Positions 8,536-24,000 are shown, numbered from the stretch's first letter. The stretch: 24,000 nucleotides of DNA from Zobellia uliginosa (GCF_900156625.1 NZ_FTOB01000002.1:94275-118274), one strand, 5' to 3'. Numbers and translations: made by a program. The notes: generated from the sequence alone by a model not told the origin.

Positions 8536-8623
8536 GTCTTGATCTTAATGGGTTTCAGTTTTTGTCCGATAAATTCCAGAAGGAAATCCAGACCGGGCAA
8601 GGCTGCCTTTTGTATTTATGTAC

Positions 8624-8703: not shown

Positions 8704-8707
8704 TTTT

Positions 8708-9792: not shown

Positions 9793-9809
9793 AGCCCCGG
9801 GTTGGGGCT
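9793..9809 (-). terminator. Candidate intrinsic terminator hairpin after the RraB/DUF695-like gene
   Basis: AGCCCC-gggtt-GGGGCT has a 6-bp GC stem and lies 28 nt past the stop at 9838. The minus-strand tail is ATTTGT. The + strand tail TTTTG is stronger, so the direction is ambiguous. Confidence 0.45.
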
Positions 9810-9837
9810 TTTGATGGGGTGTGTTGGGGTTTCGGTT

Positions 9838-10614
9838 TTATTCTAGCCTGTTCATGAGTTCCGAGTAAATCTTCCACTCTGGGTCTTCAATGATGCTGAA
9901 CTCGAAATCCCTTTGGTTGCCATGTTCTTTTAGAAAGTCCATTAACCCCGTGGCGCCTTCCTTTTCGTTGGTTACCAGGTAGACCGTTCTTTCCGAATTA
10001 TAGGTGGTCCGCCCAACATAGTAATTGGGAATTTTATTTTGGGTCAAATTATTTTCAACGAATATCTCAAAGTCGTTGAGGTCTTGCAGTTCTTCTTCGG
10101 TCGGTAATTGTGAGGCGCTACCCACCCTGTATTTCGATTTGATCTCGATGAAGTACTGAAACTCATTTTTGTGGGGAAATGGTTCAAAAGCCTTATTGGC
10201 AGAAAGCAAACAGGGAAGGTCATCTATGATAAAGTCCTTCGATGCGAACTGTTCGGGTACCGCATAGGTGTCTCTTTCTATGGGAAGGTTTTTATCGGGG
10301 TTTCCGATGTCGAATCCATCGTACGAGCTTAAGTTGAATTTGTCAGCGACCGCATATAATGTTTTGTTCAGCTCAAAGAGGGAAGTGGCATTATGGCTTT
10401 CTATCCGTTCTAAGTGCAACCAGTATTCGCCCGTGTCATCGGGGTAGATGTCTACGTGTTCGAAGCCTTCACTTTTCAGGAGTTCCGATACCTTTTCCAA
10501 GGTTTGGGGTTCTGAGTTGGTGAAGAAATAACCGTATAGCATGTCAGCGTCGGTATTGACCCCGCTGCTATGCATATGGTCATAGATTTCTTGAATTTTT
10601 TCGAGTGCGATCAT
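9838..10614 (-). CDS. RraB-like / DUF695-like two-domain hypothetical protein
   Basis: The ORF runs to 10692, but the first 26 codons are low-complexity (MKRNRIPLCKAYFSCKKKSNNQQNPT). The start is placed at MIALEKIQ (10614). The family call is from memory of the N-terminal RraB-type fold and the C-terminal YVGRTTY...VYLV pattern. Confidence 0.55.
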   Translation of the reverse strand: MIALEKIQEIYDHMHSSGVNTDADMLYGYFFTNSEPQTLEKVSELLKSEGFEHVDIYPDDTGEYWLHLERIESHNATSLFELNKTLYAVADKFNLSSYDGFDIGNPDKNLPIERDTYAVPEQFASKDFIIDDLPCLLSANKAFEPFPHKNEFQYFIEIKSKYRVGSASQLPTEEELQDLNDFEIFVENNLTQNKIPNYYVGRTTYNSERTVYLVTNEKEGATGLMDFLKEHGNQRDFEFSIIEDPEWKIYSELMNRLE

Positions 10615-10721
10615 AGTGGGATTTTGTTGGTTATTCGATTTTTTCTTACAAGAAAAATATGCCTTACATAGCGGTATTCGATTGCGCTTCATTTATCTCT
10701 TGAAGCTTTTTCTTGAATTAT

Positions 10722-10873
10722 TTACAACGGTTTTGTGTATGGCGCATTGTGTGCGGTAGCCCATAATTTTAAAAAAGGCAGGAAGCAAGGGGAGTGTTGA
10801 AGTAGGGGAGGGCAGGGCAATGAAATACAGGGCTTAAAGGTTTTCTTCGATTATACGCAAGGGTAAGTGTAAG
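10722..10873. repeat. Uninterrupted member (unit F) of the palindrome family, upstream of the RraB/DUF695-like gene
   Basis: The left end TTACAACGGTTTTGTGTATGG closely matches units A (CACAACGAGGTTGTGTATGG) and C (CTAACGGTTTGTATAAG). The right end GATTATACGCAAGGGTAAGTGTAAG matches AATTATACACGG.. / AATTATATACGGTAGTGTTAC. Confidence 0.45.
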
Positions 10874-10935
10874 ATTTCTAGGGAAGTAGGTTTACATTTT
10901 TATCGTAAATGTTAGGCGGACCTTATAAATTAGAA

Positions 10936-10964
10936 AAGGCGTTTGAATTAACTCCAAACGCCTT
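10936..10964 (-). terminator. Rho-independent terminator of the SDR gene
   Basis: AAGGCGTTTG-9 nt loop-CAAACGCCTT is a perfect 10-bp stem. It lies 28 nt after the stop at 10992 and is followed on the minus strand by TTTCTAATTT. Confidence 0.65.
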
Positions 10965-10991
10965 AGGTTTTATATCATGAGCAACGAGACC

Positions 10992-11717
10992 TTATGGTTG
11001 TTGTTTCGTTGCTGCTATTACAATTTCCCTAACATTTACACCTTGGGGTTGATTGTAGGCATACCACATGGCATTCGCAATATCAACAGGATTTAAAATT
11101 TTACCCATCTCTTTTTTCCAATTTTCATACCCTTCTTTGATTTCTTCCGATGTTGTGTGTGAAAGCAATTCTGTTTCTACTGCCCCAGGAGCGATGGTAA
11201 CCATTCTAACATTGGACAAAGCAGCTTCTTCACGTGCATTTTCTGTTATGGCGTGAACACCGAACTTTGTTCCGCAGTAGGCCGCGTGGTTGGCAAAGGT
11301 TTTACGGCCAGCGATTGAACTTGTGTTTATAATTGTTCCTGACTGTCGTGTTTTCATTTGTGGCAAGACGGCTTGCATACCGTTGAGTAGCCCTAAAACG
11401 TTAACGTCGAACATCTTTTTCCATTCTAAGGGGTCTTGGTTCGCAATATCGCCTAAAAGCATCATGCCTGCGTTGTTGATCATGCAATCTACGGGTCCGA
11501 ATTTTTCTTCGGCGGCTGCAATGGCATTTTTTAAGGCATCAATATCGGTAACATCTACTTTTTTACATAAGGTATTGGGTAGGTTAAACCCTTCTATGAG
11601 TTCAATTCTTCTGGCTATTAAAAGCAATGGATGTCCGTTTTTCGAGAATAATTCTGCCGTTGCTTTTCCTATTCCGGAACTCGCCCCTGTAATGACTACT
11701 AATTTTTTACTTGACAT
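10992..11717 (-). CDS. SDR-family oxidoreductase (classical short-chain dehydrogenase)
   Basis: 241 aa with the cofactor motif TGASSGIGKA, NNAG and the catalytic YxxxK (YCGTK). Confidence 0.9.
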   Translation of the reverse strand: MSSKKLVVITGASSGIGKATAELFSKNGHPLLLIARRIELIEGFNLPNTLCKKVDVTDIDALKNAIAAAEEKFGPVDCMINNAGMMLLGDIANQDPLEWKKMFDVNVLGLLNGMQAVLPQMKTRQSGTIINTSSIAGRKTFANHAAYCGTKFGVHAITENAREEAALSNVRMVTIAPGAVETELLSHTTSEEIKEGYENWKKEMGKILNPVDIANAMWYAYNQPQGVNVREIVIAATKQQP

Positions 11718-11878
11718 TTTTTTGAGTTTTTAATTCTGTGTTTTATTATAATTATTGTAAATGATAACTTTGTGAAAATATTTTAAAACACCTGATTGTT
11801 CTTTTAGTAGCACAAATGTATAGGGGGCTTTATGATATTCAAAATACTATTTATATATGTCGATCATAAGTTTAAATT

Positions 11879-12763
11879 ATGGATATAAGGTTGTTGAAAT
11901 TCTTTATCGCGGTTTATGAACAGAAAAATTTAACACGTGCCGCCGAGCAGTGTTTTGTGTCTCAGCCCAATATTTCCAATGGCATAAAGCAGCTTGAGGA
12001 AGAAGTAGGGAAAACACTTTTTGAACGTCATAAAAAGGGCGTGGAACTAAAAACGGAGGCACATTATCTATACCCGATCGCGAAACGTTTGGTAGGGGAA
12101 CTCAAGGGCTTAAATGGATTTTTTAATGAACGAGAGTTTAAAAATAAAATTCAGATCGGCGTTGCCGATAGCTTGCCACAAGAGCATAAACAGCAATTTT
12201 TTAGAACGGCCTCTAAATTATGTGAATCTGTAGAATGGAATACCAAAGAAATTGGAAGGGAGAATGAAATTAATCTGTTGGTAAGGGAATGGAAAAACGA
12301 AGAAGATTTGTTCTTACCCCTCTGGAAGGAGGACTATGTTTTATGTATTCCCAATGGTCATCATTTATTAAATAAAGAGGTGATTGATTTAAAGGATTTA
12401 GAAAGGGAAACATTTATCCATTGTCCTTCTTGTGAAGCACATATACAATGTTTGTCGATCTTGAACAATGAAACGAATAAGATGACGACCGTTGCGAACT
12501 GTTCGTCAAAAACAGAGACCTTGACTATGCTTATGGCAGGTTTAGGGGTTACTTTTTTGCCTGAAGCCTTTATTGATGGTTGGTATGGATTTAAAGTAAA
12601 ACAATTTGACGGACCAAGATATTTTAGGGAAGTTGGCTTGGCGTATCCTCGTAAAAGCCTAAGAAACCCGGCAATTGCAAAAATTATTGAATATTTTTCA
12701 AAGAACGGGTTGAAAGTGAACAAGTTTGACGATTTTGCTTACTCTCTAAAAACGACTTCTTAG
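11879..12763 (+). CDS. LysR-family transcriptional regulator
   Basis: 294 aa with an N-terminal wHTH (LKFFIAVYEQKNLTRAAEQCFVSQPNISNGIKQLEEEVG). It is divergently transcribed from the SDR gene, which is the classic LTTR arrangement. Confidence 0.9.
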   Translation: MDIRLLKFFIAVYEQKNLTRAAEQCFVSQPNISNGIKQLEEEVGKTLFERHKKGVELKTEAHYLYPIAKRLVGELKGLNGFFNEREFKNKIQIGVADSLPQEHKQQFFRTASKLCESVEWNTKEIGRENEINLLVREWKNEEDLFLPLWKEDYVLCIPNGHHLLNKEVIDLKDLERETFIHCPSCEAHIQCLSILNNETNKMTTVANCSSKTETLTMLMAGLGVTFLPEAFIDGWYGFKVKQFDGPRYFREVGLAYPRKSLRNPAIAKIIEYFSKNGLKVNKFDDFAYSLKTTS

Positions 12764-12869
12764 ATTTAGGGTATTTCAAAATTAAGGGGCGATCACGATA
12801 CTTCTGGCGAGAAAAGAAGTCTATCTAAAAGTTTTGATTATTCAAAAAAATATTTGGAAGAAAGTATGT

Positions 12870-12889
12870 ATCTAAACAATTATTTAGAT
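12870..12889. promoter_or_regulatory. Candidate SdpR/ArsR-type operator palindrome
   Basis: ATCTAAACAATTATTTAGAT is palindromic at 18 of 20 positions and ends 23 nt upstream of the sdpR-like ATG. Extra TCTAAA half-sites lie at about 12824 and 12895. Confidence 0.35.
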
Positions 12890-12912
12890 TTTTGTCTAAA
12901 TAACTAAACGAA

Positions 12913-13167
12913 ATGAATTATTTGTTCAAAGCGCTTAATGATGAAACAAGAAGACGGATTATAGAACTATTGAAGGATAAGGATATGAATGCAGGGGAAA
13001 TTGCGGATGAATTTAACATTTCGAAGCCCAGTATTTCGCATCATCTTGATATTCTCAAAAGGGCAGATTTAATAATAAGCGAAAAGAAAGGGCAATTTGT
13101 CGAGTACTCATTAAACACAAGCATATTAGAGGATTTAATGGCTTGGATACTAACCTTAAAAAAATAA
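12913..13167 (+). CDS. ArsR/SmtB-type autorepressor, SdpR family
   Basis: 84 aa. LNDETRRRIIELLKDKDMNAGEIADEFNISKPSISHHLDILKRADLI is a typical SdpR/ArsR wHTH. It lies immediately upstream of an SdpI-like gene. Confidence 0.8.
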   Translation: MNYLFKALNDETRRRIIELLKDKDMNAGEIADEFNISKPSISHHLDILKRADLIISEKKGQFVEYSLNTSILEDLMAWILTLKK

Positions 13168-13169
13168 AC

Positions 13170-13823
13170 ATGAAATTCTCAATACAGAAAGAACTTCCTT
13201 TGATAAGTGTGGTTTTATTGCCTTTTATATACCTGAAATATGTATGGAACGACCTACCGCAAAAAGTTCCCGTACACTGGAATTTACAGGGGGAAATTGA
13301 TAGATATGGCAGCAAGATGGAATTATGGCTAATTCCAATTCTTTTACCCCTTTTAAGCTATATCATCTTTCTTATTGTACCCCATATCGACCCAAAGGGA
13401 AAGATTAAAAATATGGGGGCCAAATATGGTCATCTCAAAATGTGGGTTACCTTACTTATGTCCGTAATATCCATTTTTATTCTCTATACTATAAAAAACC
13501 AGCCCGGCTCGAGTCCGGATTATATCATTCCCTTACTTGGTGTTTTACTACTAATTTTTGGCAATTATTTCCAAACACTAAAGGCCAATTACTTTATCGG
13601 TATCCGAACGCCTTGGACCCTAGAAAACGAAATGGTATGGAAAAGAACACATAGAATCGCAGGGAAACTATGGTTTGTAGGTGGATTGGTGATTCTGCTC
13701 GGCAGTTCTATTTTAGACGGTCAAATTAGCATAAAGTTCGCCTTGGGCATAATAAGCTTGATAGGCCTTTTTCCAATTTTATATTCGTACTTGTTATTTA
13801 GGAAACTAAAAAATCCTGCCTAG
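13170..13823 (+). CDS. SdpI/YhfL-family membrane protein (DUF1648 + SdpI domains)
   Basis: The ATG is 2 nt after the sdpR-like stop. The protein is polytopic, with the pattern PVHWNLQGEIDRYGSK then IGIRTPWTLENEMVWKRTHR that is characteristic of SdpI-type immunity/signal proteins. Confidence 0.75.
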   Translation: MKFSIQKELPLISVVLLPFIYLKYVWNDLPQKVPVHWNLQGEIDRYGSKMELWLIPILLPLLSYIIFLIVPHIDPKGKIKNMGAKYGHLKMWVTLLMSVISIFILYTIKNQPGSSPDYIIPLLGVLLLIFGNYFQTLKANYFIGIRTPWTLENEMVWKRTHRIAGKLWFVGGLVILLGSSILDGQISIKFALGIISLIGLFPILYSYLLFRKLKNPA

Positions 13824-13879
13824 CATACGATAACCGAATCAAGCTTCATGTTTACGACTAATTTTTGAAAACCTTAGAT

Positions 13880-14626
13880 ATGCACAACAAGCTAAAATTG
13901 GGTCTGACCCTATTTGGCCTCGGAATTCTCGGCATACTATCCATGCTCACAATTACTTTTCCAGGGGATATGATACCCAAGGAACTGGTTGAGGCCCTAT
14001 CGCCAGAAACCCTCAAGTATTTATCGTTGATACAACCATCAGTTTTGCTGTTGATTGCTGTCGTTATCGGAACGATGCTCTATGATAAGGTCAATTTACA
14101 GGTACCCTCTATTTCCGATATATTGAAAATTGAAAGTCCTAAAATATCGTTCAAGGAACAAATTAAATTCGGGGTCTTATTTGGGATCATCGCTGGTATA
14201 TTGACAACCTTGGTTACATTCGTTTTTAAAACATCGATTCCTCAAGAGTTTGTCGAAATGCAGGGGAAAGTCCAATTTACCCCTATTGCCAGATTTCTGT
14301 ACGGCGGGATTACCGAAGAAATTTTAATGCGTTTTGGCTTTATGACATTGCTAGTTTGGTCAGCATTTAAAATCACCAAGAATTTAAATGATCTGACGTA
14401 TTGGATCGGAATTGTTTTGGCAAGTCTTTTATTCGCAATAGGACATTTTCCAATGGTGTTTAGCGTAGTAGAAAATCCATCCGCTTTATTTCTGACATTT
14501 GTTATGCTTGGCAATTCCATAGCAGGGTTATTCTTTGGTTGGCTTTATTGGAGGAAGGGACTGGAGGCGGCAATGGTCGCTCATATCATGACCCATGTAA
14601 TACTAATGACCGGGGAAATCATGTAG
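13880..14626 (+). CDS. CPBP-family intramembrane glutamic endopeptidase (CAAX protease/Abi)
   Basis: It carries the CPBP motifs EEILMRFGF (EExxxR), FAIGHF (FxxxH) and a distal HIMTH. The ATG at 13880 is preferred over the TTG at 13865. Confidence 0.8.
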   Translation: MHNKLKLGLTLFGLGILGILSMLTITFPGDMIPKELVEALSPETLKYLSLIQPSVLLLIAVVIGTMLYDKVNLQVPSISDILKIESPKISFKEQIKFGVLFGIIAGILTTLVTFVFKTSIPQEFVEMQGKVQFTPIARFLYGGITEEILMRFGFMTLLVWSAFKITKNLNDLTYWIGIVLASLLFAIGHFPMVFSVVENPSALFLTFVMLGNSIAGLFFGWLYWRKGLEAAMVAHIMTHVILMTGEIM

Positions 14627-14890
14627 GTTTCCCTTCACAAGAATTATCCGGTTTTCAAGAACTTCATTAAAGTTTACATCCGTATGGGTGGGAACTCCTG
14701 CGTGGCAGTTTTTTAATTCCTGCAGGGTAAAAAGTACGGCCGGTTTGACCATCTATATAGTAATGGCAATTCCGTTCCCCTCCTTAGGGATTATTCGCTC
14801 CAATTTAAGTGCTATTCTCGACTACAAACCCCATTTTTGGGATTATAAAGTTGGTAGAATGATTTTTACTACTGTTTAGGCTATTATTTT

Positions 14891-15019
14891 TATACTTTGT
14901 GCTCGTTGCGCGACTATGAATAATATCAATACGCACTTGTTAGGTTATTGGCAAAGAATAATTATGTTTTAAAATTAACCGAGAAAACAGTTGTTTTTTA
15001 ACTCAGTTCTTTGTTGGCA
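14891..15019. repeat. Possible further member (unit G) of the palindrome family downstream of the cupin gene
   Basis: GTTGCGCGACTATGAATAAT resembles GTTGCTTTGCGACTAAAGATAG of unit A. GGCAAAGAATAATTATG resembles GGCAATTAATTATAC. The 11-mer CTTTGTTGGCA (15009-15019, 7 nt from the stop) is identical to the one flanking the IS at 23646-23656. Arm pairing is weak. Confidence 0.3.
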
Positions 15020-15026
15020 GTAGTAT

Positions 15027-15575
15027 TTATTTGACGAATGTGACTCCGTGATTGCTGCAAATGTCTGCTACCTTTTCAAAATCAGGCGGTCCGGAAGGCA
15101 AGTCAGCCAGTTCTTGAAACATTTTTTCAATTCCCGCAGGAATAGCACTTGTAATCATTTTAGCTTTTTCTGAACCTACGACTTTCCAAGCGTGTGGTAA
15201 GTTCTTTGGTGCAAATGCTGTGTCGCCTGCCTTTAATACAGTAGTTGTTCCATCAACCATTATTTCGACCTGTCCTTTGACGACCCTAAAAATCTCGTCT
15301 TCTTTGGTATGTATGTGTGGCGGTATACCAACACCAGGTTCTACATTGTCAACCCACTCCACAATTTGGTTGTCGGTTTCACTTCCGATTAATTTATGGG
15401 TCTGTATATCGCCAATTACGTCTAAAACTTCACCCTCATTGTCCTTTATGATTTTGGGATTGAGATTAGAAAAAAGGACTGTATTTTTAAATTGCTGCTT
15501 GCTGCTTGCTATTCTAGGTATCAACACAATTCCGAGCCCCAAGCCCGTAGTTTGAATAAATTTTTTTCTGTTCAT
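15027..15575 (-). CDS. Exported cupin-domain protein (Tat-like signal)
   Basis: The N-terminus MNRKKFIQTTGLGLGIVLIP is Tat/secretion-like. The cupin_2 core is GIPPHIHTKEDEIFRVVKGQVEI...LPHAW. The ATG at 15575 is preferred to the TTG at 15581. Confidence 0.75.
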   Translation of the reverse strand: MNRKKFIQTTGLGLGIVLIPRIASSKQQFKNTVLFSNLNPKIIKDNEGEVLDVIGDIQTHKLIGSETDNQIVEWVDNVEPGVGIPPHIHTKEDEIFRVVKGQVEIMVDGTTTVLKAGDTAFAPKNLPHAWKVVGSEKAKMITSAIPAGIEKMFQELADLPSGPPDFEKVADICSNHGVTFVK

Positions 15576-15667
15576 AACCAATTGTTCTTTAGTTATGATA
15601 AAGGTAAAGCGAGAAGTTGCTTTAAAAGTTGTGATAAAATCGGTATAACATTAGAATTTCGGAAAAT

Positions 15668-16477
15668 TTAGCTCTTTCTAATTTGAGAAGGCGGCAAGTT
15701 GGTGTGCTTCTTTAGGAAATAGCTGAAATAATCAGGTGAGGAAAAGCCCAATTGATAGGCTATTTCTTTGATGGGCTTATCGGTGAATTTCAATTCGTGG
15801 CGGGCGGTCATCACAAGTTTTTCGGCAATAAGGCTTTTGGCATTTGTTCCTAAAACCTCTTTCACGCACTCGTTCAGGTATTTGTCCGAAACGTGTAATA
15901 GTTGTGCATAGGCCGAAACTTCGTGTTTTTTCGAAAATTGTGTGTCAATCTTTTTCTTGAATTTATAGACCAAGGCAGCTTTTTGGTTATTGTCCGAAAT
16001 AAACGTTTTTATATTGCATTTCCCGTCACAATACACAAAAAAGGTATTCAGAAGTGACAATATAGCCTGCTCTTTATTCGGAAGATTAGTGCTGATGAGT
16101 TCATCGAGCATTTCAAGAATAGATTTTACACGTTTTTCGATACCTGGGGAAAGGTTTATTTTCGGAATCTCATCAGTCGATTTGAAAAAACGCACTTGGG
16201 TAATATGCAGGTTTTTAAAAATAGGGTTGTCCATCAGGGTTCTGGGGATTAATAGCACGTATCCCGATGATGAATCAGTATCAGTTTTATAAAGTTTCCA
16301 ATCAAAGTCAGGGGTAAGGAAAAAAACCGAATTGGATATGTTTTTATATTTTGTTTGGTTTATTTCGATATGGTCAACGCCGTTTTGCAACCAGCACAAC
16401 GTATAACAATCTTCTTCATTTCGCCTTGAAGTTACCTTGTTCAGTATGGGTGATATTTTTATTGTTTGTGTTCGCAT
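15668..16477 (-). CDS. AraC-family transcriptional regulator
   Basis: 269 aa. The C-terminal double HTH (SAYAQLLHVSDKYLNECVKEVLG ... IKEIAYQLGFSSPDYFSYFLKKHTNLPPSQIR) is typical of AraC/XylS. Confidence 0.85.
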   Translation of the reverse strand: MRTQTIKISPILNKVTSRRNEEDCYTLCWLQNGVDHIEINQTKYKNISNSVFFLTPDFDWKLYKTDTDSSSGYVLLIPRTLMDNPIFKNLHITQVRFFKSTDEIPKINLSPGIEKRVKSILEMLDELISTNLPNKEQAILSLLNTFFVYCDGKCNIKTFISDNNQKAALVYKFKKKIDTQFSKKHEVSAYAQLLHVSDKYLNECVKEVLGTNAKSLIAEKLVMTARHELKFTDKPIKEIAYQLGFSSPDYFSYFLKKHTNLPPSQIRKS

Positions 16478-16489
16478 TCTTATATTACT

Positions 16490-16662
16490 GCCAACGGCCC
16501 GGGACTAGGCCCTGCGGATGCGCAGCATACGCGTTAAGGGTCTGGGCTGGGCATCCGTGGGGCTTATCCCTTGTTGTGTTTCGTTTTCCTTCGGGAGGTC
16601 TCTACGGTTTTCTGAGGTCGCTCCCTATATTTTTGCGCCGCCCTTCCCGGGCCGTTGTGGCG
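16490..16662. repeat. Uninterrupted GC-rich attC-like palindrome (unit E), 12 nt upstream of the AraC ATG
   Basis: A perfect 13-bp inverted repeat CAACGGCCCGGGA (16493-16505) / TCCCGGGCCGTTG (16645-16657) has outer boxes GCCAACGG and GTTGTGGCG. Pairing extends further (GCGG..CGCA / TGCG CCGC). Inner hairpins are GGATGC/GCATCC and a CC-UUCG-GG motif. Confidence 0.6.
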
Positions 16663-16753
16663 TATTGAGCGCACCGGGAATCGAAAAAAGGTATGGGTAC
16701 GGAGCGTTGCCCGTCTTGCTTTTTTCGATGTAGGGACGCGGCCGAAGGCAATT

Positions 16754-17489
16754 CGCCACAACGAGGTTGTGTATGGTTAGTTGCTTTGCGACTAAAGATA
16801 GCAAAAGGGGACGAATCTGAGGGAAATTCGGAGAATTTTCAGATTAGAGATTATCAAACTCTGGCAATTAATTATACACGGTGTGTGCCCAGTATGGGCA
16901 TCCTTTACGCTACAGAAATGTAGTTGATTAATCTAGAGGGGGCAAGTCCCTTATGGGCAGGGGTAACGCCTTGAACCATTAGTAAGTCGCAAGGGTGGTA
17001 ACTGCGAAGTTACATCTGAAGAAAGCGCGACTACAAAACTCGGTACCGACGAACAGGAACCGTATACGGAGGCATATTCATCCGGGCAAGCAAGCACATC
17101 ATTGTAACGCCCCAAGAGAACCAAAAGGATGATTATGTAGATACGGCGGTTATCGAGCGAAAGAAGATGTTCTTACCTGGGGAGATCTCTATAACCACGA
17201 GTTGGTATAGTAGAGAAGTCAGCAGAGGTCATAGTACTTACGGGCAACGAGCTAGGGCAATACCCTAGAGGTCTCACAAGTAAGGAAGGACCGAACGTAA
17301 TTCTCTTCAAAATTCGCATAGGAGCACGTGTTGTAGCCTATGTCTAAATTAGAAGATAGTGCCAAGGGTGGAAAGAGCCTTGGTTTGATGATTTACGAAC
17401 CGCCTGTTACGAGACCCGTATGGCAGGTGGTGTGAGAGGCGCAGTCCGTTCCTAACTAGGGGCGGACCCGTCTACTCGATTGTGGTGCG
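16754..17489. repeat. attC-like palindrome unit A, split by the group II intron (16883-17480)
   Basis: The left arm GTGTATGGTTAGTTGC (16769-16784) pairs with GCAATTAATTATACAC (16864-16879) as 13 Watson-Crick plus 3 G.T pairs. The outer box CGCCACAACG (16754-16763) pairs with GGT|TGTGGTGCG across the intron. The unit ends 3 nt from the stop of the 219-aa ORF. Confidence 0.6.
16883..17480 (+). mobile_element. ORF-less group II intron (class C-like), antisense to the flanking genes
   Basis: The 5' end GUGUGCCCAGUAUGGGCA fits GUGYG plus the domain I stem. The string GAAGUCAGCAGAGGUCAUAGUA is typical of bacterial introns. A domain V-like 33-nt hairpin lies at 17399-17431 (ACCGCCUG/CAGGUGGU, CGC triad, 3'-side bulge). 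Domain VI (17433-17478) has a bulged A at 17474, 7 nt from the AU 3' end. No + strand ORF of 60 aa or more lies inside. The 5' boundary is uncertain by 2 nt (16881 or 16883). Confidence 0.75.
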
Positions 17490-17492
17490 TTT

Positions 17493-18152
17493 TTATTCCG
17501 TCAACTTCATTTCCTCCATTTTTTCCGGTTCTTTAGGAGGCGGTGGTGGTTCAAAATAGGGTGTATAATCTGTGAGCCATATCCTTATGTCTGAATTTAG
17601 AAAGTTCCGTTCGTAAGCTCTACTTAATTCTAAAAAAATTGGTTGGAGCTTATTTAAGCCATCATTTGAGACAGAAATCGAAAGAATATGTTTGGCAGGA
17701 CTTTCACTCCAATTTTCGTCTTTTCCATTATTGGATATATCTTTTTCCAAAACTGATCCTAATTTGGAAAGTTCAAACTTTTTGCAGATCCATGGATTAG
17801 TGAATCTTTTCTCAATACTATCATCATGCACGATCAGTACATTTTTCTGTTTGATAAGGATATCACCTATTTTGTCCCAACAAGGCGTTGATACTTTGTG
17901 GATATATGTAGTATCATTGACCCTCATTATGACAACTGGGACGCTATCATTGCAAACTATCTCGTCAACATGTTTTAAAAGATTACGATAATCGTCGAAT
18001 TCAGAAAATTCTAAAGCAACCATATTATCTTCAATATTAGACACAACATTTTCTGTCAAATCAATGTTTTTATCCTGTTGCCTTTCGTTTTTGCAGCCAG
18101 AAACGACAATAAGCAATATGGTGATTAAGCATTTATTCAATAGTCTTTCCAT
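17493..18152 (-). CDS. Hypothetical lipoprotein
   Basis: 219 aa with a signal peptide and lipobox (LLIVVSGC|KNE) and a Pro-rich C-terminus (EPPPPPKEPEK). I recognise no family. Confidence 0.7.
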   Translation of the reverse strand: MERLLNKCLITILLIVVSGCKNERQQDKNIDLTENVVSNIEDNMVALEFSEFDDYRNLLKHVDEIVCNDSVPVVIMRVNDTTYIHKVSTPCWDKIGDILIKQKNVLIVHDDSIEKRFTNPWICKKFELSKLGSVLEKDISNNGKDENWSESPAKHILSISVSNDGLNKLQPIFLELSRAYERNFLNSDIRIWLTDYTPYFEPPPPPKEPEKMEEMKLTE

Positions 18153-18200
18153 ATTTTGACTCGATAGCTCAAGAAATTAATAGAGTTTCTTTATGTAGGG

Positions 18201-18969
18201 AATGCACCACAACGCTAAATATATGGCAAGTTGGGCGGAAAACAAGTAATTATTTTTGGTTTAGCCACAAGCCAAATCTTTTGTATTTTGTTTTAATTTT
18301 TCTCTTTTAATACCAAATCAAAATATTTGGCGACTTTGCAAATAGACAACAACCTTTCGATTAAACACTAATCGCCAATTTGCTATATATAGTGTGCCTG
18401 TTGCACAAGTTAACGAAAAAACCACATAGGATCAAGGCGATCTTAACGTTGCGTTGTTAATTTTAGGTATGCAGGGAAAAAAGGATTACCAAGAAAAACG
18501 GTTCGCCCATTTCCAGTTGAGCGAGCGAATCCCCGAGAACAATTTCTACAGGCGGTTAAAGGAGGTTTTGGAACTCCGGTTCTTTTACGGCCTTACCGAA
18601 GGCTACTACGGGAACAGCGGCCAAAAGAGCATAGACCCGGTGGTCTTCTTCAAGCTCTGCCTTGTGGGCTACCTGGAGAACATCATCAGCGACCGCAAGC
18701 TTACAAGGTGATGCACCTCTCGGCCATAGCCTATAATCTTAAAAAGTACCTGAAATTCACGGAAAAACGTGCCAAAAGCGGGGCGGGACGGCTTGATTTG
18801 GCAGTCTTGGCAAAAAGTGCGCTTCAATACTTGTTTGGGACTTGCATAAAACATCGAAATTTGGTGCCTCGATTCTGGCCCGACATAAAAAGAGCCCCGT
18901 AAAGAGGCTTATATGAATCCGTTTTTTTGCTTTTCAATGGCTTGTGCAACGATTACTTGTGTTAGCATT
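18201..18969. repeat. attC-like palindrome unit B, split by MITE copy 1 (18393-18956)
   Basis: The left part AATGCACCACAACGCTAAATATATGGCAAGTTGGGCGG (18201-18238) pairs with ATCGCCAATTTGCTATATATAG (18371-18392) plus TTGTGTTAGCATT (18957-18969). The reverse complement of the right part reads AATGCTAACACAACTATATATAGCAAATTGGCGAT. An inner inverted repeat is GCCAAATCTTTTG/CAAAATATTTGGC. Confidence 0.6.
18393..18956 (+). mobile_element. Internally deleted, non-autonomous (MITE-like) IS1182-family derivative, copy 1
   Basis: This 564-bp copy is collinear with both ends of the full IS at 21923-23645. About 1159 bp are missing between GACCGCAAGCT and ACAAGGTGATGCAC. Only transposase fragments remain (85-aa N-terminal and 64-aa C-terminal ORFs). 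Confidence 0.85.
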
Positions 18970-18974
18970 AGTTT

Positions 18975-19535
18975 TTATTCGGGCAATTTATCATATATCG
19001 TAATGTCTACAGGAATTTTTATTTTTTTATTTACTTTTCCAGGCATTTCAAAGTCAATTAAAATATGTCCTTTAAGTTTTTCATATTCTTTGTCAAGTTT
19101 TATTTTAATCCCTAAGTTTTGACATAAAACATTATCATAATCCCATAAAGAGTATTCCTGTAAATTAACAGCTATTTCATTATCTACTATTTGGAGTTTC
19201 TCATTTTTCTCATTTATCAATTCGTAATCTTTAAAGGTACATGTAGTAAAATCCCAAATATCATCGTCTTTGTTGATTATAGTTCCATTGTTTTCATTAA
19301 ACTCTTCCAGTTTCGTTTTGGATATAGGATATCTAGTATAAAGATGTACTAAACTTGTTGGTTGCTTTTTCCTTTCAGTAAAGGCTCCAATAGAAATTGT
19401 TGCTTTTGCTCCAATTTCGTCTAAAAACTGTTCACTCTCGTTTTTAGAATATTTGTAATCGGATTTATCTTGACTATTACAACTGGTCAGAAATACAGTT
19501 AGTGTTATGAAAAAAAGTTTTCTAAAATATTTCAT
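18975..19535 (-). CDS. Hypothetical lipoprotein
   Basis: 186 aa with a signal peptide and lipobox (TLTVFLTSC|NSQ). I recognise no family. Confidence 0.7.
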   Translation of the reverse strand: MKYFRKLFFITLTVFLTSCNSQDKSDYKYSKNESEQFLDEIGAKATISIGAFTERKKQPTSLVHLYTRYPISKTKLEEFNENNGTIINKDDDIWDFTTCTFKDYELINEKNEKLQIVDNEIAVNLQEYSLWDYDNVLCQNLGIKIKLDKEYEKLKGHILIDFEMPGKVNKKIKIPVDITIYDKLPE

Positions 19536-19556
19536 TCTGGAATTTTAGTTTAAATT

Positions 19557-20278
19557 AATGCTAACGGTTTGTATAAGATTAGTTGCGTCGTTTAAGCAAC
19601 TAATTTAGCAAATACAAACCGAACCTGCCAGCCGGCAGGCTGGTAGAAAATCCGCAAGGATTTTCGTAAGTAGGCTAGAACTAGCAATAAATTATATACG
19701 GTGTGCCTGTTGCACAAGTTAACGAAAAAACCACATAGGATCAAGGCGATCTTAACGTTGCGTTGTTAATTTTAGGTATGCAGGGAAAAAAGGATTACCA
19801 AGAAAAACGGTTCGCCCATTTCCAATTGGGCGAGCGAATCCCCGAGAACAATTTCTACAGGCGGTTAAAGGAGGTTTTGGAACTCCGGTTCCTTTATGGC
19901 CTTAGCGAAGGCTATTACGGGAACAGCGGCCAAAAGAGCATAGACCCGGTGGTCTTCTTCAAGCTCTGTCTTGTGGGCTATCTGGAGAACATCGTCAGCG
20001 ACCGCAAGCTTACAAGGTGATGCACCTCTCGGCGATTGCCTATAACCTGAAGAAGTGCCTGAAATTCACGGAAAAACGTGTCAAAAGCGGGGCGGGACGG
20101 CTTGATTTGGCAGTCTTGGTAAAAAGTGCGCTTCAATACTTGTTCGGGACTTGCATAAAACATCTAAATTTGGTGCCTCGATTCTGCCCCGACATAAAAA
20201 AAGCCCCGTAAAGAGGCTTATATGAATCCGTTTTTTTGCTTTTCAATGGCTTGTGCAAGGATTACTAGTGTTACCTGC
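19557..20278. repeat. attC-like palindrome unit C, split by MITE copy 2 (19702-20265)
   Basis: The left arm GTATAAGATTAGTTGC (19571-19586) pairs with GCAATAAATTATATAC (19684-19699) as 12 Watson-Crick, 2 G.T and 2 A.A pairs. The outer boxes are AATGCTAACGG and TAGTGTTACCTG. The interior holds a perfect local palindrome (19566-19620), CCTGCC-agcc-GGCAGG, and GAAAATCC-gcaa-GGATTTTC (19646-19665). The unit is homologous to unit A over most of its length. Confidence 0.6.
19702..20265 (+). mobile_element. Internally deleted, non-autonomous (MITE-like) IS1182-family derivative, copy 2
   Basis: It has the same 564-bp length and the same deletion junction (GACCGCAAGCTTACAAGGTGATGCAC) as copy 1. Scattered substitutions separate it from copy 1 and from the full IS. 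Confidence 0.85.
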
Positions 20279-21679
20279 TGGCTTTTCGGCTTCTAAATCC
20301 CAGTATAATTGCACGTAATTATTGACGGCAATTAGTCTTAAAGTAAATTCGCCCATTATCCATCTTCTTCCATGCCACTTTCCATCATCGAATTCGCTCA
20401 TTTTAAAAGGTCCATCGTCATTTATATCAGGTCCGAAAGCTCCTAATAAGCGGTTTACTAATTCTCTTATTTCTTTATCTATTATAAACCAATTAGTAGG
20501 CTTGTCCTGACTTAAAAAAACAGACCATTCTTCATTCTCGTCGAAAGGATGGAAAGTAACTAATTTATTGAAAAAGCCAAACAAGAAATAAGGAAAGTAA
20601 AATGTTCTGTATTTTCCTGAATCAATTTCGGATTCATAAAAATCATTGGATTCCAAACGGTTTTGAAAAATGTTTAAATCAGTTTGAGGGTCTTTATTGC
20701 CTAAAAAGTTTTTATAAAATTCTAAAAATTCTTCAGGTTTTTGAACTCTAGTATTTATATCTAATTTTTCAAAAACTTTAAGTGTTTTCTTGTAAGACCT
20801 TTTATCATTAATAACATAGAAATTGCAGGTTGACGCATATGCTGCGTGGAACGCGTCTTCTGTTGTATTCTTGAAAGTTTCTTTTCTACCTTTTTTAATG
20901 TTTACTTTATCTTCTTGATAACCGTGCATATCTAATTTTAGATATTCATTAGATATGTCATTAAACCATTTCGGGGCATGCTTGCCATTGTTTTTGAACT
21001 GGTCGACGGTAATACCAAGTTTATCGTAACTTTTGTCAATTAAATCAAATGGGTTTTCAGTATTAAAAATCTTATCCCTATTAATACCCATACCATTTTG
21101 TATTGTTTGTCTTAACTCCTTGTAGCCATCATTTTCATTTAGATTTATATTCATTTGAGAAAAACTTTTGAAAAAACCACCCATTGTAGGCTTATCTTTT
21201 AAACCAGGGAACATATTTTCCATTATGGCTGCGCTTTCAGGGTTTTTGAAAGCTTCTTTAAGCGAATCATCTAATGGTAGATTTTTAAGTAAATCGAACA
21301 ATGGTTTAACTATCTTGTTCGTTTTTTCATCATCTTCGAAGGTCTTCATTAATCCTTCAATACTTAAATCTTTAAATGAGTCTTTACTTTCAATTGTGTG
21401 CTCAAATAACTCCTTAGGTGGATACTGTTCACAAACAATTCCCTTTCCATTGTTATATAAACAATAGTTCTCTGTTAGTTCTGAAATAAACTCTAAGTCC
21501 GAGTTAATCAGTTCCTGTTGTTTTTGATTTTCGCTAAAACTAGCAGATATATCAGTTATATGAGAACTAGAAAAAATAACAAATAAATTGTGATTATTTA
21601 AAAGGATTTCTTTTAACTCCGAATGTGCTCCATTTTTAATTTGAGATAGGACATTCCAGTCAAAATAAACTTTAATCAT
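20243..21679 (-). CDS. Hypothetical protein with PIN-like nuclease motifs (tentative); 3' end runs into MITE copy 2
   Basis: The start is placed at MIKVYFDWNVLSQI (21679), because the 570-aa track ORF begins inside the IS end. The N-terminal xxFDxNVL and distal TEDAFHAAYASTCNFYVINDK resemble the first and last acidic motifs of PIN-like domains. The last 9 codons and the stop (NTSNPCTSH*) are encoded by the MITE terminus. The CDS is well supported, but the product call is weak. Confidence 0.6.
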   Translation of the reverse strand: MIKVYFDWNVLSQIKNGAHSELKEILLNNHNLFVIFSSSHITDISASFSENQKQQELINSDLEFISELTENYCLYNNGKGIVCEQYPPKELFEHTIESKDSFKDLSIEGLMKTFEDDEKTNKIVKPLFDLLKNLPLDDSLKEAFKNPESAAIMENMFPGLKDKPTMGGFFKSFSQMNINLNENDGYKELRQTIQNGMGINRDKIFNTENPFDLIDKSYDKLGITVDQFKNNGKHAPKWFNDISNEYLKLDMHGYQEDKVNIKKGRKETFKNTTEDAFHAAYASTCNFYVINDKRSYKKTLKVFEKLDINTRVQKPEEFLEFYKNFLGNKDPQTDLNIFQNRLESNDFYESEIDSGKYRTFYFPYFLFGFFNKLVTFHPFDENEEWSVFLSQDKPTNWFIIDKEIRELVNRLLGAFGPDINDDGPFKMSEFDDGKWHGRRWIMGEFTLRLIAVNNYVQLYWDLEAEKPAGNTSNPCTSH

Positions 21680-21922
21680 GTTTACTGGTGGTTTTTTGAG
21701 CTTGCAGATAACGGTTGAGCTAAGCGTAGTGCGGAGGTACGACATCTGCGACAGCAGTGGGCGAGTTGGCGCGCTGGCCAGTTTCCGTCTTAACACGAAG
21801 CTAAAGCTTTTGGTTTTGCTTTTTCTTTTTTTGTCCAAAGCTAAATCCCAAAGATTTAGCGCCATTATAAATATACACAGACCTTTCAATTTTGCCCTAA
21901 AGTCCGCATTACGTTTAGGCAT

Positions 21923-23645
21923 TGTGCCTGTTGCACAAGTTAACGAAAAAACCACATAGGATCAAGGCGATCTTAACGTTGCGTTGTTAATTTTAGGTAT
22001 GCAGGGAAAAAAGCATTACCAAGAAAAACTGTTCGCCCATTTCCAGTTGAGCGAGCGAATCCCCGAGAACAATTTCTACAGGCGGTTAAAGGAGGTTTTG
22101 GAACTCCGGTTCCTTTACGGCCTTACCGAAGGCTATTACGGGAACAGCGGCCAAAAGAGCATAGACCCGGTGGTCTTCTTCAAGCTCTGCCTTGTGGGCT
22201 ATCTGGAGAACATCATCAGCGACCGCAAGCTCATGGCCCATTGTTCCCTACGGTTGGACATCCTTTATTTCATAGGGTACGATATAGACGAGGAGCTCCC
22301 CTGGCACAGTACGATAAGCCGTACCCGCCAACTGTTCCCGGAAAGTGTATTCGAGGAAGTCTTCACCACGGTTTTACGTATGTGCGTGGAGAAGGGAATG
22401 GTAAGCGGCCATACCCAGGCCATAGATTCCGCACCGGTCAAGGCCAACGCGAGCATGGACACCTTGGAACTTAAGGTGCCCGAAGGGGAACTGGACGAAC
22501 ACCTGCGCAAGGTACGGGTGCTGAGTGCAATGGACAAAGGGGAGCCACACCGTAAATCGCAGAACGACAGGTCGGACAAGGGCCAGCGCAGCGTTACGGC
22601 CAACCCCAACGAACTGGCGGCGATAAAGGGCCGGAACAAAAAATGGGCGAAGGACCAGGACCAACGCCCGGGCGCCAAGAACAAGGGGGCCAAGTATACG
22701 AGTAACAAAACACATTACAGCCCCACGGACCCCGATGCGAGGATCAGCGTAAAACCGGGCAAGGCCCGAAAGCTGAACTACCTGAGCCAATTGAGCGTTG
22801 ATACGGCCCACCACGTCATTACGGACATCAGGGCCTACCATGCGGACGGGAAGGACAACCAACAGTTGCCGGATATCGTCCAAAGACTTCGGGCAAGGTT
22901 GTGGAAGCAGGGCCTGGTCTGGGAGAACTGTGTAGCGGACACGGGTTACAGTAGCGGGGAGAACTATGCCTTTCTAGAGGATATCGGTCTAAAGAGCTTC
23001 ATTCCGCCCCATGGCACCTACAAGGGCGGTCCGGACGGATTCACCTATAACAATACAGAAGACCATTACGTATGTCCGCAGGGCAAGGTGATACCCTTCA
23101 CCAAGGTGTTCAACGATCACCGTACGGGTACGAAAAAGAAAGCGTACCGCGCATCGAGCCTGATCTGTAAGGGCTGCCCGTTGAAATCCACATGTCTGGG
23201 CAAGGTGAACGAAAAACAATTTTCGGTCACCTATTACCGTGCGGAGTACGAGCGGAACATCAAAAGGGTGAACAGTAAATTGGGGCGCTATATGAAGGGC
23301 AAGCGACAGAGTACGGTAGAGCCCGTATTCGGAACGCTGACCCAGTTCATGGGGCTCAGGAAGATAAACACCATAGGATTGGCACAGGCCAACAAGGTGA
23401 TGCACCTCTCGGCGATTGCCTATAACCTGAAGAAGTACCTGAAATTCACGGAAAAACGCTCAAAAAGCGGGGCGGGACGGCTTGATTTGGCAGTCTTGGC
23501 AAAAAGTGCGCTTCAATACTTGTTCGGGACTTGCATAAAGCATCGAAATTTGGTGCCTCGATTCTGGCCCGACATAAAAAAAGCCCCGTAAAGAGGCTTA
23601 TATAAATCCGTTTTTTTGCTTTTCAATGGCTTGTGCAACGATTAC
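21923..23645 (+). mobile_element. IS1182-family insertion sequence, full length (1723 bp)
   Basis: The boundaries are defined by where the three copies stop being alike (TGTGCCTGTTGCACAAG... ...CTTGTGCAACGATTAC). A subterminal inverted 10-mer GTTGCACAAG lies 7 nt and 6 nt from the ends. It has a single long transposase ORF. I could not identify a target-site duplication. Confidence 0.9.
21999..23591 (+). CDS. IS1182-family DDE transposase
   Basis: 530 aa from the ATG at 21999; the track uses the TTG at 21984. The N-terminal InsH/DUF772-type region is IPENNFYRRLKEVLELRF...GQKSIDPVVFFKLCLVGYLENIISDRKL...PWHSTISRTRQLF. The C-terminal region is STVEPVFGTLTQFMGLRKINTIGLAQANKVMHLSAIAYNLKKYLKF, as in IS1182/IS5-related transposases. 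Confidence 0.9.
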   Translation: MQGKKHYQEKLFAHFQLSERIPENNFYRRLKEVLELRFLYGLTEGYYGNSGQKSIDPVVFFKLCLVGYLENIISDRKLMAHCSLRLDILYFIGYDIDEELPWHSTISRTRQLFPESVFEEVFTTVLRMCVEKGMVSGHTQAIDSAPVKANASMDTLELKVPEGELDEHLRKVRVLSAMDKGEPHRKSQNDRSDKGQRSVTANPNELAAIKGRNKKWAKDQDQRPGAKNKGAKYTSNKTHYSPTDPDARISVKPGKARKLNYLSQLSVDTAHHVITDIRAYHADGKDNQQLPDIVQRLRARLWKQGLVWENCVADTGYSSGENYAFLEDIGLKSFIPPHGTYKGGPDGFTYNNTEDHYVCPQGKVIPFTKVFNDHRTGTKKKAYRASSLICKGCPLKSTCLGKVNEKQFSVTYYRAEYERNIKRVNSKLGRYMKGKRQSTVEPVFGTLTQFMGLRKINTIGLAQANKVMHLSAIAYNLKKYLKFTEKRSKSGAGRLDLAVLAKSALQYLFGTCIKHRNLVPRFWPDIKKAP

Positions 23646-23667
23646 CTTTGTTGGCATTTCGTACTTT

Positions 23668-24000
23668 TTATTTCAGATGCATTTTGGTATTGTCCTTTAT
23701 TTCCTTACCTAAATCTGGTCTTTTTTTTACAATTAATTCTGTGAAAATTTTTTGAATGAATGGAGCCACCCAATACTGTGAATCTTCCTCTGGCGTAATT
23801 CCTATGTCCATAGAATCTGAGTAATCACTTGACATAAAAAAATGGTCATTCGAATAAAAAAGATATGCGAAATGTTGAATAAATAATGATTCAATGTCAT
23901 AAGAAATAATGTCCAGATATTTTATTCTATTTGGATTGTGTATTTCATTGTCGTTCAATAACATATTATGGAAAAAATTGTAATGCGTATTGTCATTACA
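23668..24000 (-). CDS. Hypothetical acidic protein; possibly 5'-partial
   Basis: The track gives 98 aa from the ATG at 23964. The frame has no stop between 23965 and the window edge (…CNDNTHYNFFHN-MLLNDNE…), so the gene may start beyond 24000. I recognise no family. Confidence 0.5.
   Translation of the reverse strand, partial: CNDNTHYNFFHNMLLNDNEIHNPNRIKYLDIISYDIESLFIQHFAYLFYSNDHFFMSSDYSDSMDIGITPEEDSQYWVAPFIQKIFTELIVKKRPDLGKEIKDNTKMHLK

Follow-up and report, generated by a model that had tools for sequence, protein, structure and literature searches.

A probable integron-type gene-cassette array of non-canonical form in a chromosomal stretch from Zobellia uliginosa

The 24,000-nt stretch of DNA from Zobellia uliginosa (GCF_900156625.1 NZ_FTOB01000002.1:94275-118274) that was analysed here, and which is referred to in the following as the window, contains a run of co-oriented genes that are each followed by a long imperfect palindrome. 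The original prediction took these palindromes for attC-like recombination sites, and the run as a whole for an integron cassette array of the CALIN type (cluster of attC sites lacking an integron integrase). As judged from the sequence comparisons described below, the region very probably belongs to an array of gene cassettes of the integron type, situated in a Flavobacteriaceae-like chromosome, and represents a non-canonical, Flavobacteria-type variant of such arrays. All coordinates refer to the plus strand of the window; the units are read on the minus strand. The array occupies the minus strand from beyond position 24000 down to about position 15013 and comprises at least six co-oriented cassettes.

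Read from position 24000 downward on the minus strand, the open reading frames (ORFs) of the array are co-oriented, and every cassette ends in a palindrome with the layout YAAC-arm...arm-GTTR; its two outer boxes are designated R'' (YAAC) and R' (GTTR), and the arms between them L'' and L'. Cassette 1 is represented by the 3' part of its gene (23668..24000), which continues beyond the end of the window; what had been taken for a small acidic protein of 98 aa is the C-terminus of a member of a protein family of about 270 aa. Behind it lies site A (21706..23656; R'' TGCCAAC at 23656-23650, R' GTTATCT at 21712-21706), which is interrupted by a full-length insertion sequence (IS), measures 225 nt without this insert, and is related to the sites found behind homologous 270-aa genes in two of the related loci discussed below (L001 and L002). 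The gene of cassette 2 (20243..21682) encodes 479 aa; a Pfam search found no known domain in it, leaving the earlier label 'PIN-like' without support. As had been predicted, this ORF reads into its own site: there is no stop ahead of the site (20243-20281), and with the IS present the ORF ends within the IS end, whereas after removal of the IS in silico it would run about 110 nt into site B to a TAA. Site B (19559..20276; AGGTAAC at 20276-20270, GTTAGCA at 19565-19559) measures 151 nt without its insert and is recognized with 93 bits (E=3e-21) by R1, a covariance model that was built from 12 units. Cassette 3 carries a gene for a 186-aa protein with a lipoprotein-type signal (...LTSC; 18975..19535), identified by ORF calling and without a match in the Pfam search, followed by site C (18207..18967; TGCTAAC at 18967-18961, GTTGTGG at 18213-18207; 194 nt without insert; R1 35.5 bits, E=1.5e-6). 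The ORF called in cassette 4 (17493..18152) likewise predicts a lipoprotein-type signal (...VSGC) on a protein of 219 aa, and its site D (16756..17488) has the R'' box GCACCACAAC, which is split as GCACCACA|AC (17488-17481 and 16882-16881), and the R' box GTTGTGG (16762-16756); minus the intron that splits it, this site is 132 nt long and scores 71.6 bits with R1 (E=1e-15).

Cassette 5 (16489..16761) is devoid of an ORF and consists of a body of about 90 nt plus the inverted repeat of site E, the only one of the five complete units that is uninterrupted (16489-16660; CCACAAC at 16660-16654, GTTGGCA at 16495-16489; 13 perfect pairs, AACGGCCCGGGA/TCCCGGGCCGTT). The array had been thought to end at 16490; it runs on, and a pair of genes for an AraC-family regulator (16477-15668; Pfam HTH_18/AraC) and a cupin protein (15581-15027; Cupin_2) forms a further cassette, cassette 6 (15013..16494), which starts at G|TTGGCAGTA of site E and ends with the R'' box TACTGCCAAC (15022-15013) directly after the cupin stop codon. 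The site behind cassette 6 (about 14880-15013) consists of two 5'-arm-like pieces and has no 3' arm; it is degenerate or truncated and marks the end of the array. The GC content of the ORF-less cassette with site E (about 0.50) and of the full-length IS in site A (21926-23647; about 0.55) exceeds that of the surroundings (about 0.35-0.40), which is consistent with their acquisition from other hosts.

Foreign inserts interrupt four of the six window sites: three sites are split by copies of an IS1182-family element and one by a group II intron, in all cases at the AAC. Once the inserts are taken out, units A to E are all clean and carry the boxes first listed for them, and the folding energies of these units as single-stranded DNA (ssDNA) lie well below those of shuffled sequences, so that both the location of the five units and, together with the covariation reported below, a pattern far beyond chance are borne out. 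The 13 perfect arm pairs in E were likewise found as described; the 16 contiguous pairs claimed for D hold when the conserved A.C/G.T positions are counted as pairs and fail under strict pairing.

The evidence that carries the interpretation comes from the relation between neighbouring boxes. Integron recombination cuts between the G and the TT of R', and what follows G|TT in an array is contributed by the next cassette; consequently, these bases pair with the R'' box of the next cassette and not with the R'' box of their own site. All definable junctions in the window and in five related loci (23 junctions) were examined for this signature with a permutation test. The R' box of a unit and the R'' box of the unit that follows matched at 5.96 of 7 positions on average (p<1e-5), as opposed to 2.12 of 7 for a unit's own pair of boxes and 2.38 of 7 for all other pairings. 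Within the window, the junctions score 5/7 (A to B), 7/7 (B to C; GTTAGCATTA / TAATGCTAAC), 7/7 (C to D; GTTGTGGTGC / GCACCACAAC) and 6/7 (D to E), the last of these identifying the ORF-less unit with E as cassette 5, in agreement with the original prediction. The R' box of E, GTTGGCAGTA, is the exact reverse complement (10/10) of TACTGCCAAC and, since the latter sits right past the cupin stop codon, the AraC-cupin pair is the sixth cassette. On contigs from marine metagenomes, 62 of 107 sites have an exact complement of their R' 10-mer downstream (median distance 654 nt), compared with just 3 of 126 sites that have one upstream; a site's own R box is perfectly complementary over 10 bp in 1 of 132 cases. 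The hybrid R' box that crossover at G|TT leaves behind is hence seen at the junctions of the window and of the related loci alike. Simple tandem duplication of one ancestral unit was considered as the source of the R-box complementarity and is unlikely, because the boxes differ between cassettes.

The palindromes form a family with a well-defined folded structure. R1 took the place of an ad hoc scanner that aligned AAC...GTT arms, since conserved A.C mismatches and a spacer broke the latter. In the window and the related loci, R1 matches arrays only, always on the gene strand, and it has no match in positions 1-16490 of the window, which hold 16 kb of ordinary genes. With a pattern for the 3' arm, at least 120 marine contigs were retrieved from metagenome data, and R1 found 254 sites (E<=1e-6) on 100 of them, confined to one strand per contig and numbering up to about 18 per 12 kb; the family is thus restricted to co-oriented arrays. 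Site statistics were taken from the best 150 of these 254 sites, and from 132 tabulated sites for which AAC and GTT were required. Among the best 150, most sites are 130-135 nt long (mode 132 nt), and the boxes take the forms nnnnn[A/C]YAAC (R'') and GTTR (R'). The window units had been described as longer than classical attC sites; the longer ones among them are exceptions in a family whose members mostly fall within the classical size range. The distance from the stop codon of an ORF (of at least 60 aa) to R'' has a median of 8 nt and that from R' to the next ORF with an ATG a median of 24 nt, which, together with the restriction of R1 hits to the gene strand, corroborates the uniform gene orientation and the coupling to stop and start codons. 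In the 132 tabulated sites, the AAC is preceded by Y in all cases and the GTT is followed by R in 130, and the AAC/GTT pairs are 99.5% intact in the alignment of 150 sites.

Compensatory changes occur in 14 of the 17 pairs of the L stem, a value that was reached by none of 500 shuffles, and slid controls fall to about 30% paired positions. In 149 of 150 sites, two L-stem positions are A.C on the top strand and hence G.T wobbles on the bottom strand. The R box and the L stem are separated by an asymmetric spacer, which measures 3 nt next to R'' (146/150) and 6 nt next to R' (137/150). On the top strand, the seed alignment of 12 units has 27 A.C against 2 G.T oppositions, and the bottom strand is the more stable ssDNA fold in 13 of 17 units; this difference between the strands suggests that, as with classical attC sites, the bottom strand is the one that is structured. 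An imperfect palindrome of the order R''-L''...L'-R' at the 3' end of the cassette, as is typical of attC, is thus found throughout, and all five window units fit it. No Rfam family matched the sites; to our knowledge, Rfam holds no attC family.

Genes and sites move together between genomes. Full-length 270-aa homologues of the cassette 1 protein, with 70-82% identity, are encoded in the related loci L001-L005, whose hosts are Galbibacter, Maribacter, Arenibacter and metagenome-assembled genomes (MAGs) of a Lentimicrobiaceae member and of Tangfeifania; a protein search returned 843 homologues of this family. The 270-aa gene and its site sit in different arrays of Galbibacter, Maribacter, Arenibacter and the Lentimicrobiaceae MAG. 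In the first three, the mutual similarity around the gene starts exactly at GTTGGCATTC, and the upstream neighbours differ; between the window, L001 and L002, the similarity continues through the related site and stops at the next GTT. The 219-aa lipoprotein of cassette 4 has a 35%-identical homologue in L001 (Galbibacter), which is bracketed by the same R box (GTTGTGGTGC/GCACCACAAC). More distant 270-aa homologues (in L006, L008 and L009) have no R1 site behind them. The one in L006, which is 70% identical, is located in the accessory region of a conjugative element from Bacteroidota (L006/L007, 10001-10813), where its neighbours are TraG, TraM and DUF4138. The occurrence of homologues without R1 sites indicates that this gene family is not restricted to cassettes and has more than one means of transfer.

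The cargo in related loci is rich in genes of the defence type. In Polaribacter sp. Hel1_33_78 (L130, 11192-17818), a helix-turn-helix protein, an MmeI-type restriction-modification (RM) system, a helicase and T5orf172 are contained in a single 6.4-kb cassette. AbiH, NERD, AAA_13, TIR_2 and an Eco57I-type methylase with RhuM were observed in addition (L002 14967-15953; L004 7951-9045 and 10478-12874; L138 10553-12001; L003 373-4547).

A recombinase is linked to such sites in relatives of the window. All ORFs of 130 sequences (the window and related loci, about 680 kb) were screened with IntI1 and XerD; the IntI1 query is 100% identical to copies on plasmids. Tyrosine recombinases were found on three contigs (L083, L099, L107); on each of them, the recombinase gene immediately precedes an R1-positive array and shares its strand. 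Close homologues (387-389 aa) occur frequently in marine data and among Polaribacter isolates, their annotation going no further than XerD or 'tyrosine-type recombinase', and the same arrangement recurs in Polaribacter sp. Hel1_33_78, P. gangjinensis, a Flavobacteriaceae MAG and two more metagenome contigs. In all seven independent contexts, the recombinase lies directly upstream of, and is co-oriented with, an R1-positive array. Six junctions between the integrase gene and the first cassette were examined (L083, L099, L107, L130, L131 and L132; L138 and L139 were left out). The first cassette starts 28 nt past the integrase stop codon in L083, L130, L131 and L132 and 32 nt past it in L099, at an attI-like junction of the form ...ATATAAC(N)AG|TT, and in these five loci the first ten bases of the cassette complement the R'' box of the first site at 10 of 10 positions. 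The corresponding distance in L107 is 37 nt, and its short first site matched only approximately. An attI-like site beside the integrase gene is thus found in the related loci. L130 and the metagenome locus L131 share lexA-imuB-dnaE2-integrase-attI and diverge exactly after GTTG into different cassettes, which is how integrons behave.

The genes ahead of the integrase vary between platforms. In L130 (4907-11164) and L131 (452-6709), the integrase gene lies 92 nt downstream of imuB-dnaE2 and is co-oriented with it, and this error-prone polymerase pair has a divergent gene for a LexA-like repressor. By analogy with classical intI, such an arrangement suggests SOS-controlled expression of the integrase in these two loci, and integrase expression may be linked to the SOS response in some hosts. 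The upstream genes of other platforms (polA and genes for an aldehyde dehydrogenase, a PALP enzyme and an acyl-CoA dehydrogenase) are unrelated. In L099 (8462-11041), the integrase ORF is much longer (590 aa from stop to start, with about 300 aa ahead of the SAM-like domain); ahead of it lie a gene for a HicA toxin and a degenerate R1 match (9087-9224) without AAC/GTT ends.

Two of the arrays without an integrase gene, L002 and L004, start with, and also contain, an element of about 100-300 nt that ends in a short hairpin plus ATA(T/C)AATTG|TT (L002 8464-8625, 11746-12016 and 13795-14966; L004 5521-6187, 7460-7980 and 9046-9484). A cassette with a matching R'' box begins at this end, which resembles the attI junction ATATAACNAG|TT with no integrase ahead of it; the element in L002 is preceded by a terminator-like hairpin and by a sequence resembling the left end of the IS. 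The element may be an orphan attI, a promoter cassette or a rearrangement scar. The Arenibacter locus L004 additionally holds three copies of a conserved sequence of about 150 nt (…aatatttgctaacttagaaggttagaaacaaattcctggttgtagtactccccccgctgcccaacacagaa…; ~5900-6100, ~7750-7900 and ~9250-9400), for which no match at the Rfam gathering threshold was obtained.

Several observations weigh against the reading as an integron-type array. Pfam and recombinase searches of the window revealed no integrase, as had been noted for it before; the window holds six sites, and no recombinase is present in the 15 kb downstream of the array. Around the arrays of L001-L005, Pfam likewise found none: L001, L002 and L004 have no integrase within 2-10 kb of their arrays, and in L002 and L004 this extends over 5-8 kb on either side, so that the arrays most like that of the window are integrase-less as far as seen. 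The linked integrases reach 189-215 bits with the integron integrase model TIGR02249, below its cut-off of 265 bits and with a match in two pieces, even though this is still their best bacterial model. About 40 residues of the IntI-specific insertion (IntI1 ~208-250), which form the additional domain near patch III of IntI, are absent from the integrases of L083, L099 and L107; the shortfall with TIGR02249 is accounted for by this absence and by about 105 additional N-terminal residues. In line with this, the Polaribacter homologue P0189 matches IntI4 (2a3v) in two stretches only. The best match of the linked integrase in the Protein Data Bank (PDB) is XerA and, by sequence as well as by predicted fold, the enzyme is equally close to archaeal XerA and to VchIntIA. 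The sites of the Flavobacteria type lack extra bases on the R''-L'' arm, their L'' and L' arms being of equal length. Finally, all the evidence is comparative.

The integron reading of the original prediction thus stands in its cassette logic, supported by the R-box test, the portability of cassettes, a site family that is found in one orientation relative to the genes, and the linkage to an integrase in relatives, and it does not stand in its textbook form. An AlphaFold model of the linked integrase (predicted local distance difference test score 74.8) confirmed the Xer/IntI fold, and comparison of this model with known structures gave no match for the N-terminal domain. In the VchIntIA-VCR structure (PDB 2A3V), the additional domain of IntI contacts extrahelical bases of the site. 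The joint absence of the additional domain and of the extrahelical bases is therefore coherent and suggests a distinct solution to site recognition. Published work describes the insertion as a defining and necessary feature of IntI.

The points of likeness to classical integrons (class 1 and the sedentary chromosomal integrons of Vibrio) are considerable. In both, a cassette consists of one gene and a folded imperfect-palindrome site with invariant AAC...GTT, crossover at G|TT makes the R' box chimeric, the ORFs are co-oriented, mostly promoterless and closely coupled to the sites, and the cargo is of the orphan and defence type; furthermore, the tyrosine recombinase is 35% identical to IntI1, shares its C-terminal SPLD motif, and is accompanied by an attI-like junction of the form ...AAC(N2)AG|TT. 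Unlike a classical integrase, the linked enzyme lacks the additional domain of about 40 aa, carries the N-terminal extension of about 105 aa and scores below the IntI cut-off. For the sites, seven distinct class 1 attC sites taken from plasmids (aac(6')-29a, aacA4, arr-3, dfrA27 and others) were compared directly with those of the present family. The class 1 sites examined have a 5 x 6 spacer and 2-3 extra bases in L'', which are the extrahelical bases. The present sites have a 3 x 6 spacer instead, a 17-bp L stem with two fixed G.T positions on the bottom strand, and an R-box complementarity of about 10 bp as opposed to the classical 7; on the folded bottom strand they have no extrahelical bases on the R''-L'' arm, their extra bases (3 vs 6 nt) lying on the R'-L' spacer side. 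Counted from the AAC, the fixed wobbles are at +10 and +15, and the classical extrahelical bases at +9 and +17; by this analogy, it is possible that the fixed G.T positions are functionally equivalent to extrahelical bases, and we infer that they, together with the 3 x 6 spacer, replace them.

Two other types of systems invite comparison. With Xer-dependent modules (pdif and the integrative mobile elements exploiting Xer, IMEX), the present arrays share a recombinase that is as near to Xer (XerA) as to IntI, and genes that are bracketed by sites. The Xer-dependent modules use dif-like duplex sites of 28 bp; in contrast, the present sites are hairpins of about 132 nt, all in direct orientation, one per cassette, and they are served by a dedicated attI. 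Bacterial integrons whose intI gene shares the strand of the cassettes make up the 'inverted' integrase group. In archaeal integrons, attI is located immediately downstream of intI (PMC9668308), and the position of the integrase gene upstream of, and co-oriented with, the array, with attI just past it, is common to both of these groups and to the arrays studied here. The IntI-specific additional domain has reportedly been retained by the archaeal integrases (PMC9668308), unlike by the Polaribacter-type ones.

The inserts in the window sites were correctly recognized as mobile elements in the original prediction, and their boundaries are exact, as judged from the target duplications of the IS and from the intact R'' box that excision of the intron restores. 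The full-length IS in site A (21926-23647, plus strand) encodes a transposase (ORF 21984-23591) that is identified by NCBIfam NF033551 (343 bits; cut-off 270) and by the Pfam families DDE_Tnp_1_6 and DUF772, and it is flanked by the target duplication TTGT (21922-21925 and 23648-23651). Two derivatives of 563 nt with the same internal deletion split sites B (19705-20267) and C (18396-18958). The three copies have identical ends and a 4-bp target duplication each, as expected of the IS1182 family, and since the two derivatives share one deletion and have target duplications of their own, the derivative itself has transposed. Insertion is site-specific: in all seven cases from four genomes, the left end of the IS lies 4 nt past the AAC of R'', in a single orientation. 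The elements of the IS1111-attC group, which belong to the IS110 family, also target attC sites; the IS of the window resembles them in its fixed position and orientation within integron recombination sites, and differs from them in its transposase family (DDE, IS1182), in its 4-bp target duplication and in the presence alongside it of a mobilised derivative with an internal deletion.

The group II intron in site D (16883-17480, plus strand; 598 nt) is ORF-less and was detected with the Rfam families RF02001 (128.7 bits) and RF01998 (43.5 bits); its D1-D4 models score strongly, and the domain V/VI family of Rfam is without a score at E<=0.1. It begins with GTGTG and ends with AT, and its excision restores the R'' box GCACCACAAC. 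Its insertion point separates the two T of the GTT in R'' (bottom strand) and follows immediately 3' of the folded stem. The intron runs antisense to the cassettes, and no second copy was found in the approximately 680 kb of related loci. According to the published insertion rule, group IIC-attC introns occupy the bottom strand of attC and are antisense to the cassettes (PMC3001079). The window intron follows such introns (e.g. S.ma.I2) in strand and orientation, as well as in its location at the gene-proximal R'' end 3' of the stem; it is unlike them in that it is ORF-less and resides in a site of the Flavobacteria type, and by its insertion position and orientation it is a putative member of group IIC. 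The IS and the intron both read the same conserved triplet (AAC/GTT).

Taken together, we consider the following mechanism to be the best explanation. A cassette consists of TTnnnnnnn at its 5' end, one, two or no genes, and a folded recombination site, about 130-225 nt long, with G as its last base. A tyrosine recombinase would insert and excise the cassette by cutting at G|TT, as a consequence of which the box past the crossover belongs to the next cassette and pairs with the YAAC box of that cassette. The site would most probably be used as a folded single strand, and most probably as the bottom strand, being composed of an R box of about 10 bp, the asymmetric 3 x 6-nt spacer, the 17-bp L stem with two fixed G.T wobbles, and a variable centre. 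The recombinase of the relatives is an IntI-related enzyme of about 387 aa without the IntI insertion and with an extra N-terminal domain, encoded directly upstream on the same strand, and the attI crossover lies 28 nt past its stop codon in most of the junctions examined. The comparisons show the structure of the cassettes, the position of the crossover, selection on the folded site with its strand asymmetry, the linkage of integrase, attI and array in relatives, and the insertion specificity of the two inserts. We infer that the linked integrase family recombines attI with attC, and attC with attC, on the folded bottom strand, and the genome from which the window derives presumably has such an integrase. 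The window array has furthermore been colonised by two AAC-homing elements, the IS1182-family IS with one full copy and two deletion-derivative copies, and the antisense ORF-less intron.

Among the rival explanations, the one that survives best concerns the state of the window array, which could be an inactive relic that has lost its integrase and whose sites are decaying and have been colonised by the IS and the intron. The interruption of four of the six sites, the truncation of the last one, the closest arrays without adjacent integrases, and the 479-aa ORF that runs into its site are all in keeping with decay; the R boxes of the window still complement one another almost perfectly (7/7, 7/7, 6/7, 10/10), however, and the inserts are precise and could be lost. 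We therefore regard a relic as possible, if somewhat doubtful. Quite improbable is a classical CALIN that is served in trans by a canonical IntI with an additional domain encoded elsewhere, which would make the linked recombinase incidental. This could explain why the AAC/GTT boxes, the G|TT crossover, the cassette logic and the close gene coupling are all classical, and why L001, L002 and L004 have arrays without an adjacent integrase; it is difficult to reconcile with an insertion-less integrase that abuts the array in 7/7 contexts, with a first crossover 28-37 nt past its stop codon at six junctions, with the fact that no other ORF in the 130 sequences screened matched IntI1, with a site geometry unlike that of class 1 attC (no extrahelical bases on the '' arm; 3 x 6 vs 5 x 6), and with the IntegronFinder 2.0 survey, which reports almost no integrons in Bacteroidetes (PMC9024848).

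Still less probable are elements that act at the level of RNA, i.e. terminator or attenuator hairpins or antisense RNAs that are conserved for the control of expression. The strong covariation of the stem, the G.T/G.U bias in favour of the strand antisense to the genes, and conserved inner hairpins such as GAAAATCC...GGATTTTC would be expected of such elements, but they leave the chimeric R boxes, the shared exact G|TT boundaries and the attI junction past the integrase unexplained, and the sites have neither an Rfam match nor a T-run after the main stem; a secondary role of the sites in transcription may exist. A family of palindromes spread by transposition or replication slippage and without a role in gene mobility, akin to repetitive extragenic palindromes (REPs), bacterial interspersed mosaic elements (BIMEs) or miniature inverted-repeat transposable elements (MITEs), which the original prediction had named as its main alternative, is hardly credible: the sites are indeed long imperfect intergenic palindromes with a family consensus, and a Y1 transposase ORF occurs in one array, but their ends are not self-contained, the R' box matching the next unit in a pattern that a REP or MITE cannot give, they depend on gene ends and lie on the gene strand only (one strand per contig, 8 nt past the stop codon, none in the 16 kb of ordinary window genes at 1-16490), gene and site move together between genera, and no target-site duplications flank the units.

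Integrons are defined, and searched for, by the additional domain of IntI and by the extrahelical attC bases that this domain reads. Beyond the interpretation of the window as a Flavobacteria-type integron array, we hold it to be somewhat more probable than otherwise that marine Flavobacteriia (Polaribacter, Maribacter, Arenibacter, Galbibacter and many uncultured relatives) harbour an abundant and seemingly unrecognised integron lineage, which has neither an additional domain nor extrahelical bases and which has its own specialised parasites in the form of an attC-targeting IS of the IS1182 family and an ORF-less group II intron. In such a lineage, the 3 x 6 spacer and the two fixed G.T wobbles would mark the recombining strand. 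Because both features sought by integron-finding software would be missing, its members would be annotated as 'XerD' plus hypothetical genes, and the Bacteroidota would for this reason look almost free of integrons. Searches of open-access literature for integrons in Flavobacteriia or Bacteroidota returned only general statements and one CALIN of a Polaribacter phage, and the present variant was not found there.

A single picture accounts for the odd intergenic palindromes of the window, the clustered copies of the IS and the antisense intron. It provides comparative evidence for the capture of cassettes at G|TT by a system with neither the additional domain nor extrahelical bases. If confirmed, the integron mechanism would be more plastic than the VchIntIA-VCR structure suggests, and these sites would offer a natural test of how the strand is chosen without flipped-out bases. 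Confirmation would also mean that a dominant group of heterotrophs in the ocean, reported to be nearly devoid of integrons, possesses a large reservoir of gene cassettes, one that appears to be rich in defence genes (MmeI-type RM, AbiH, TIR, NERD, AAA_13).

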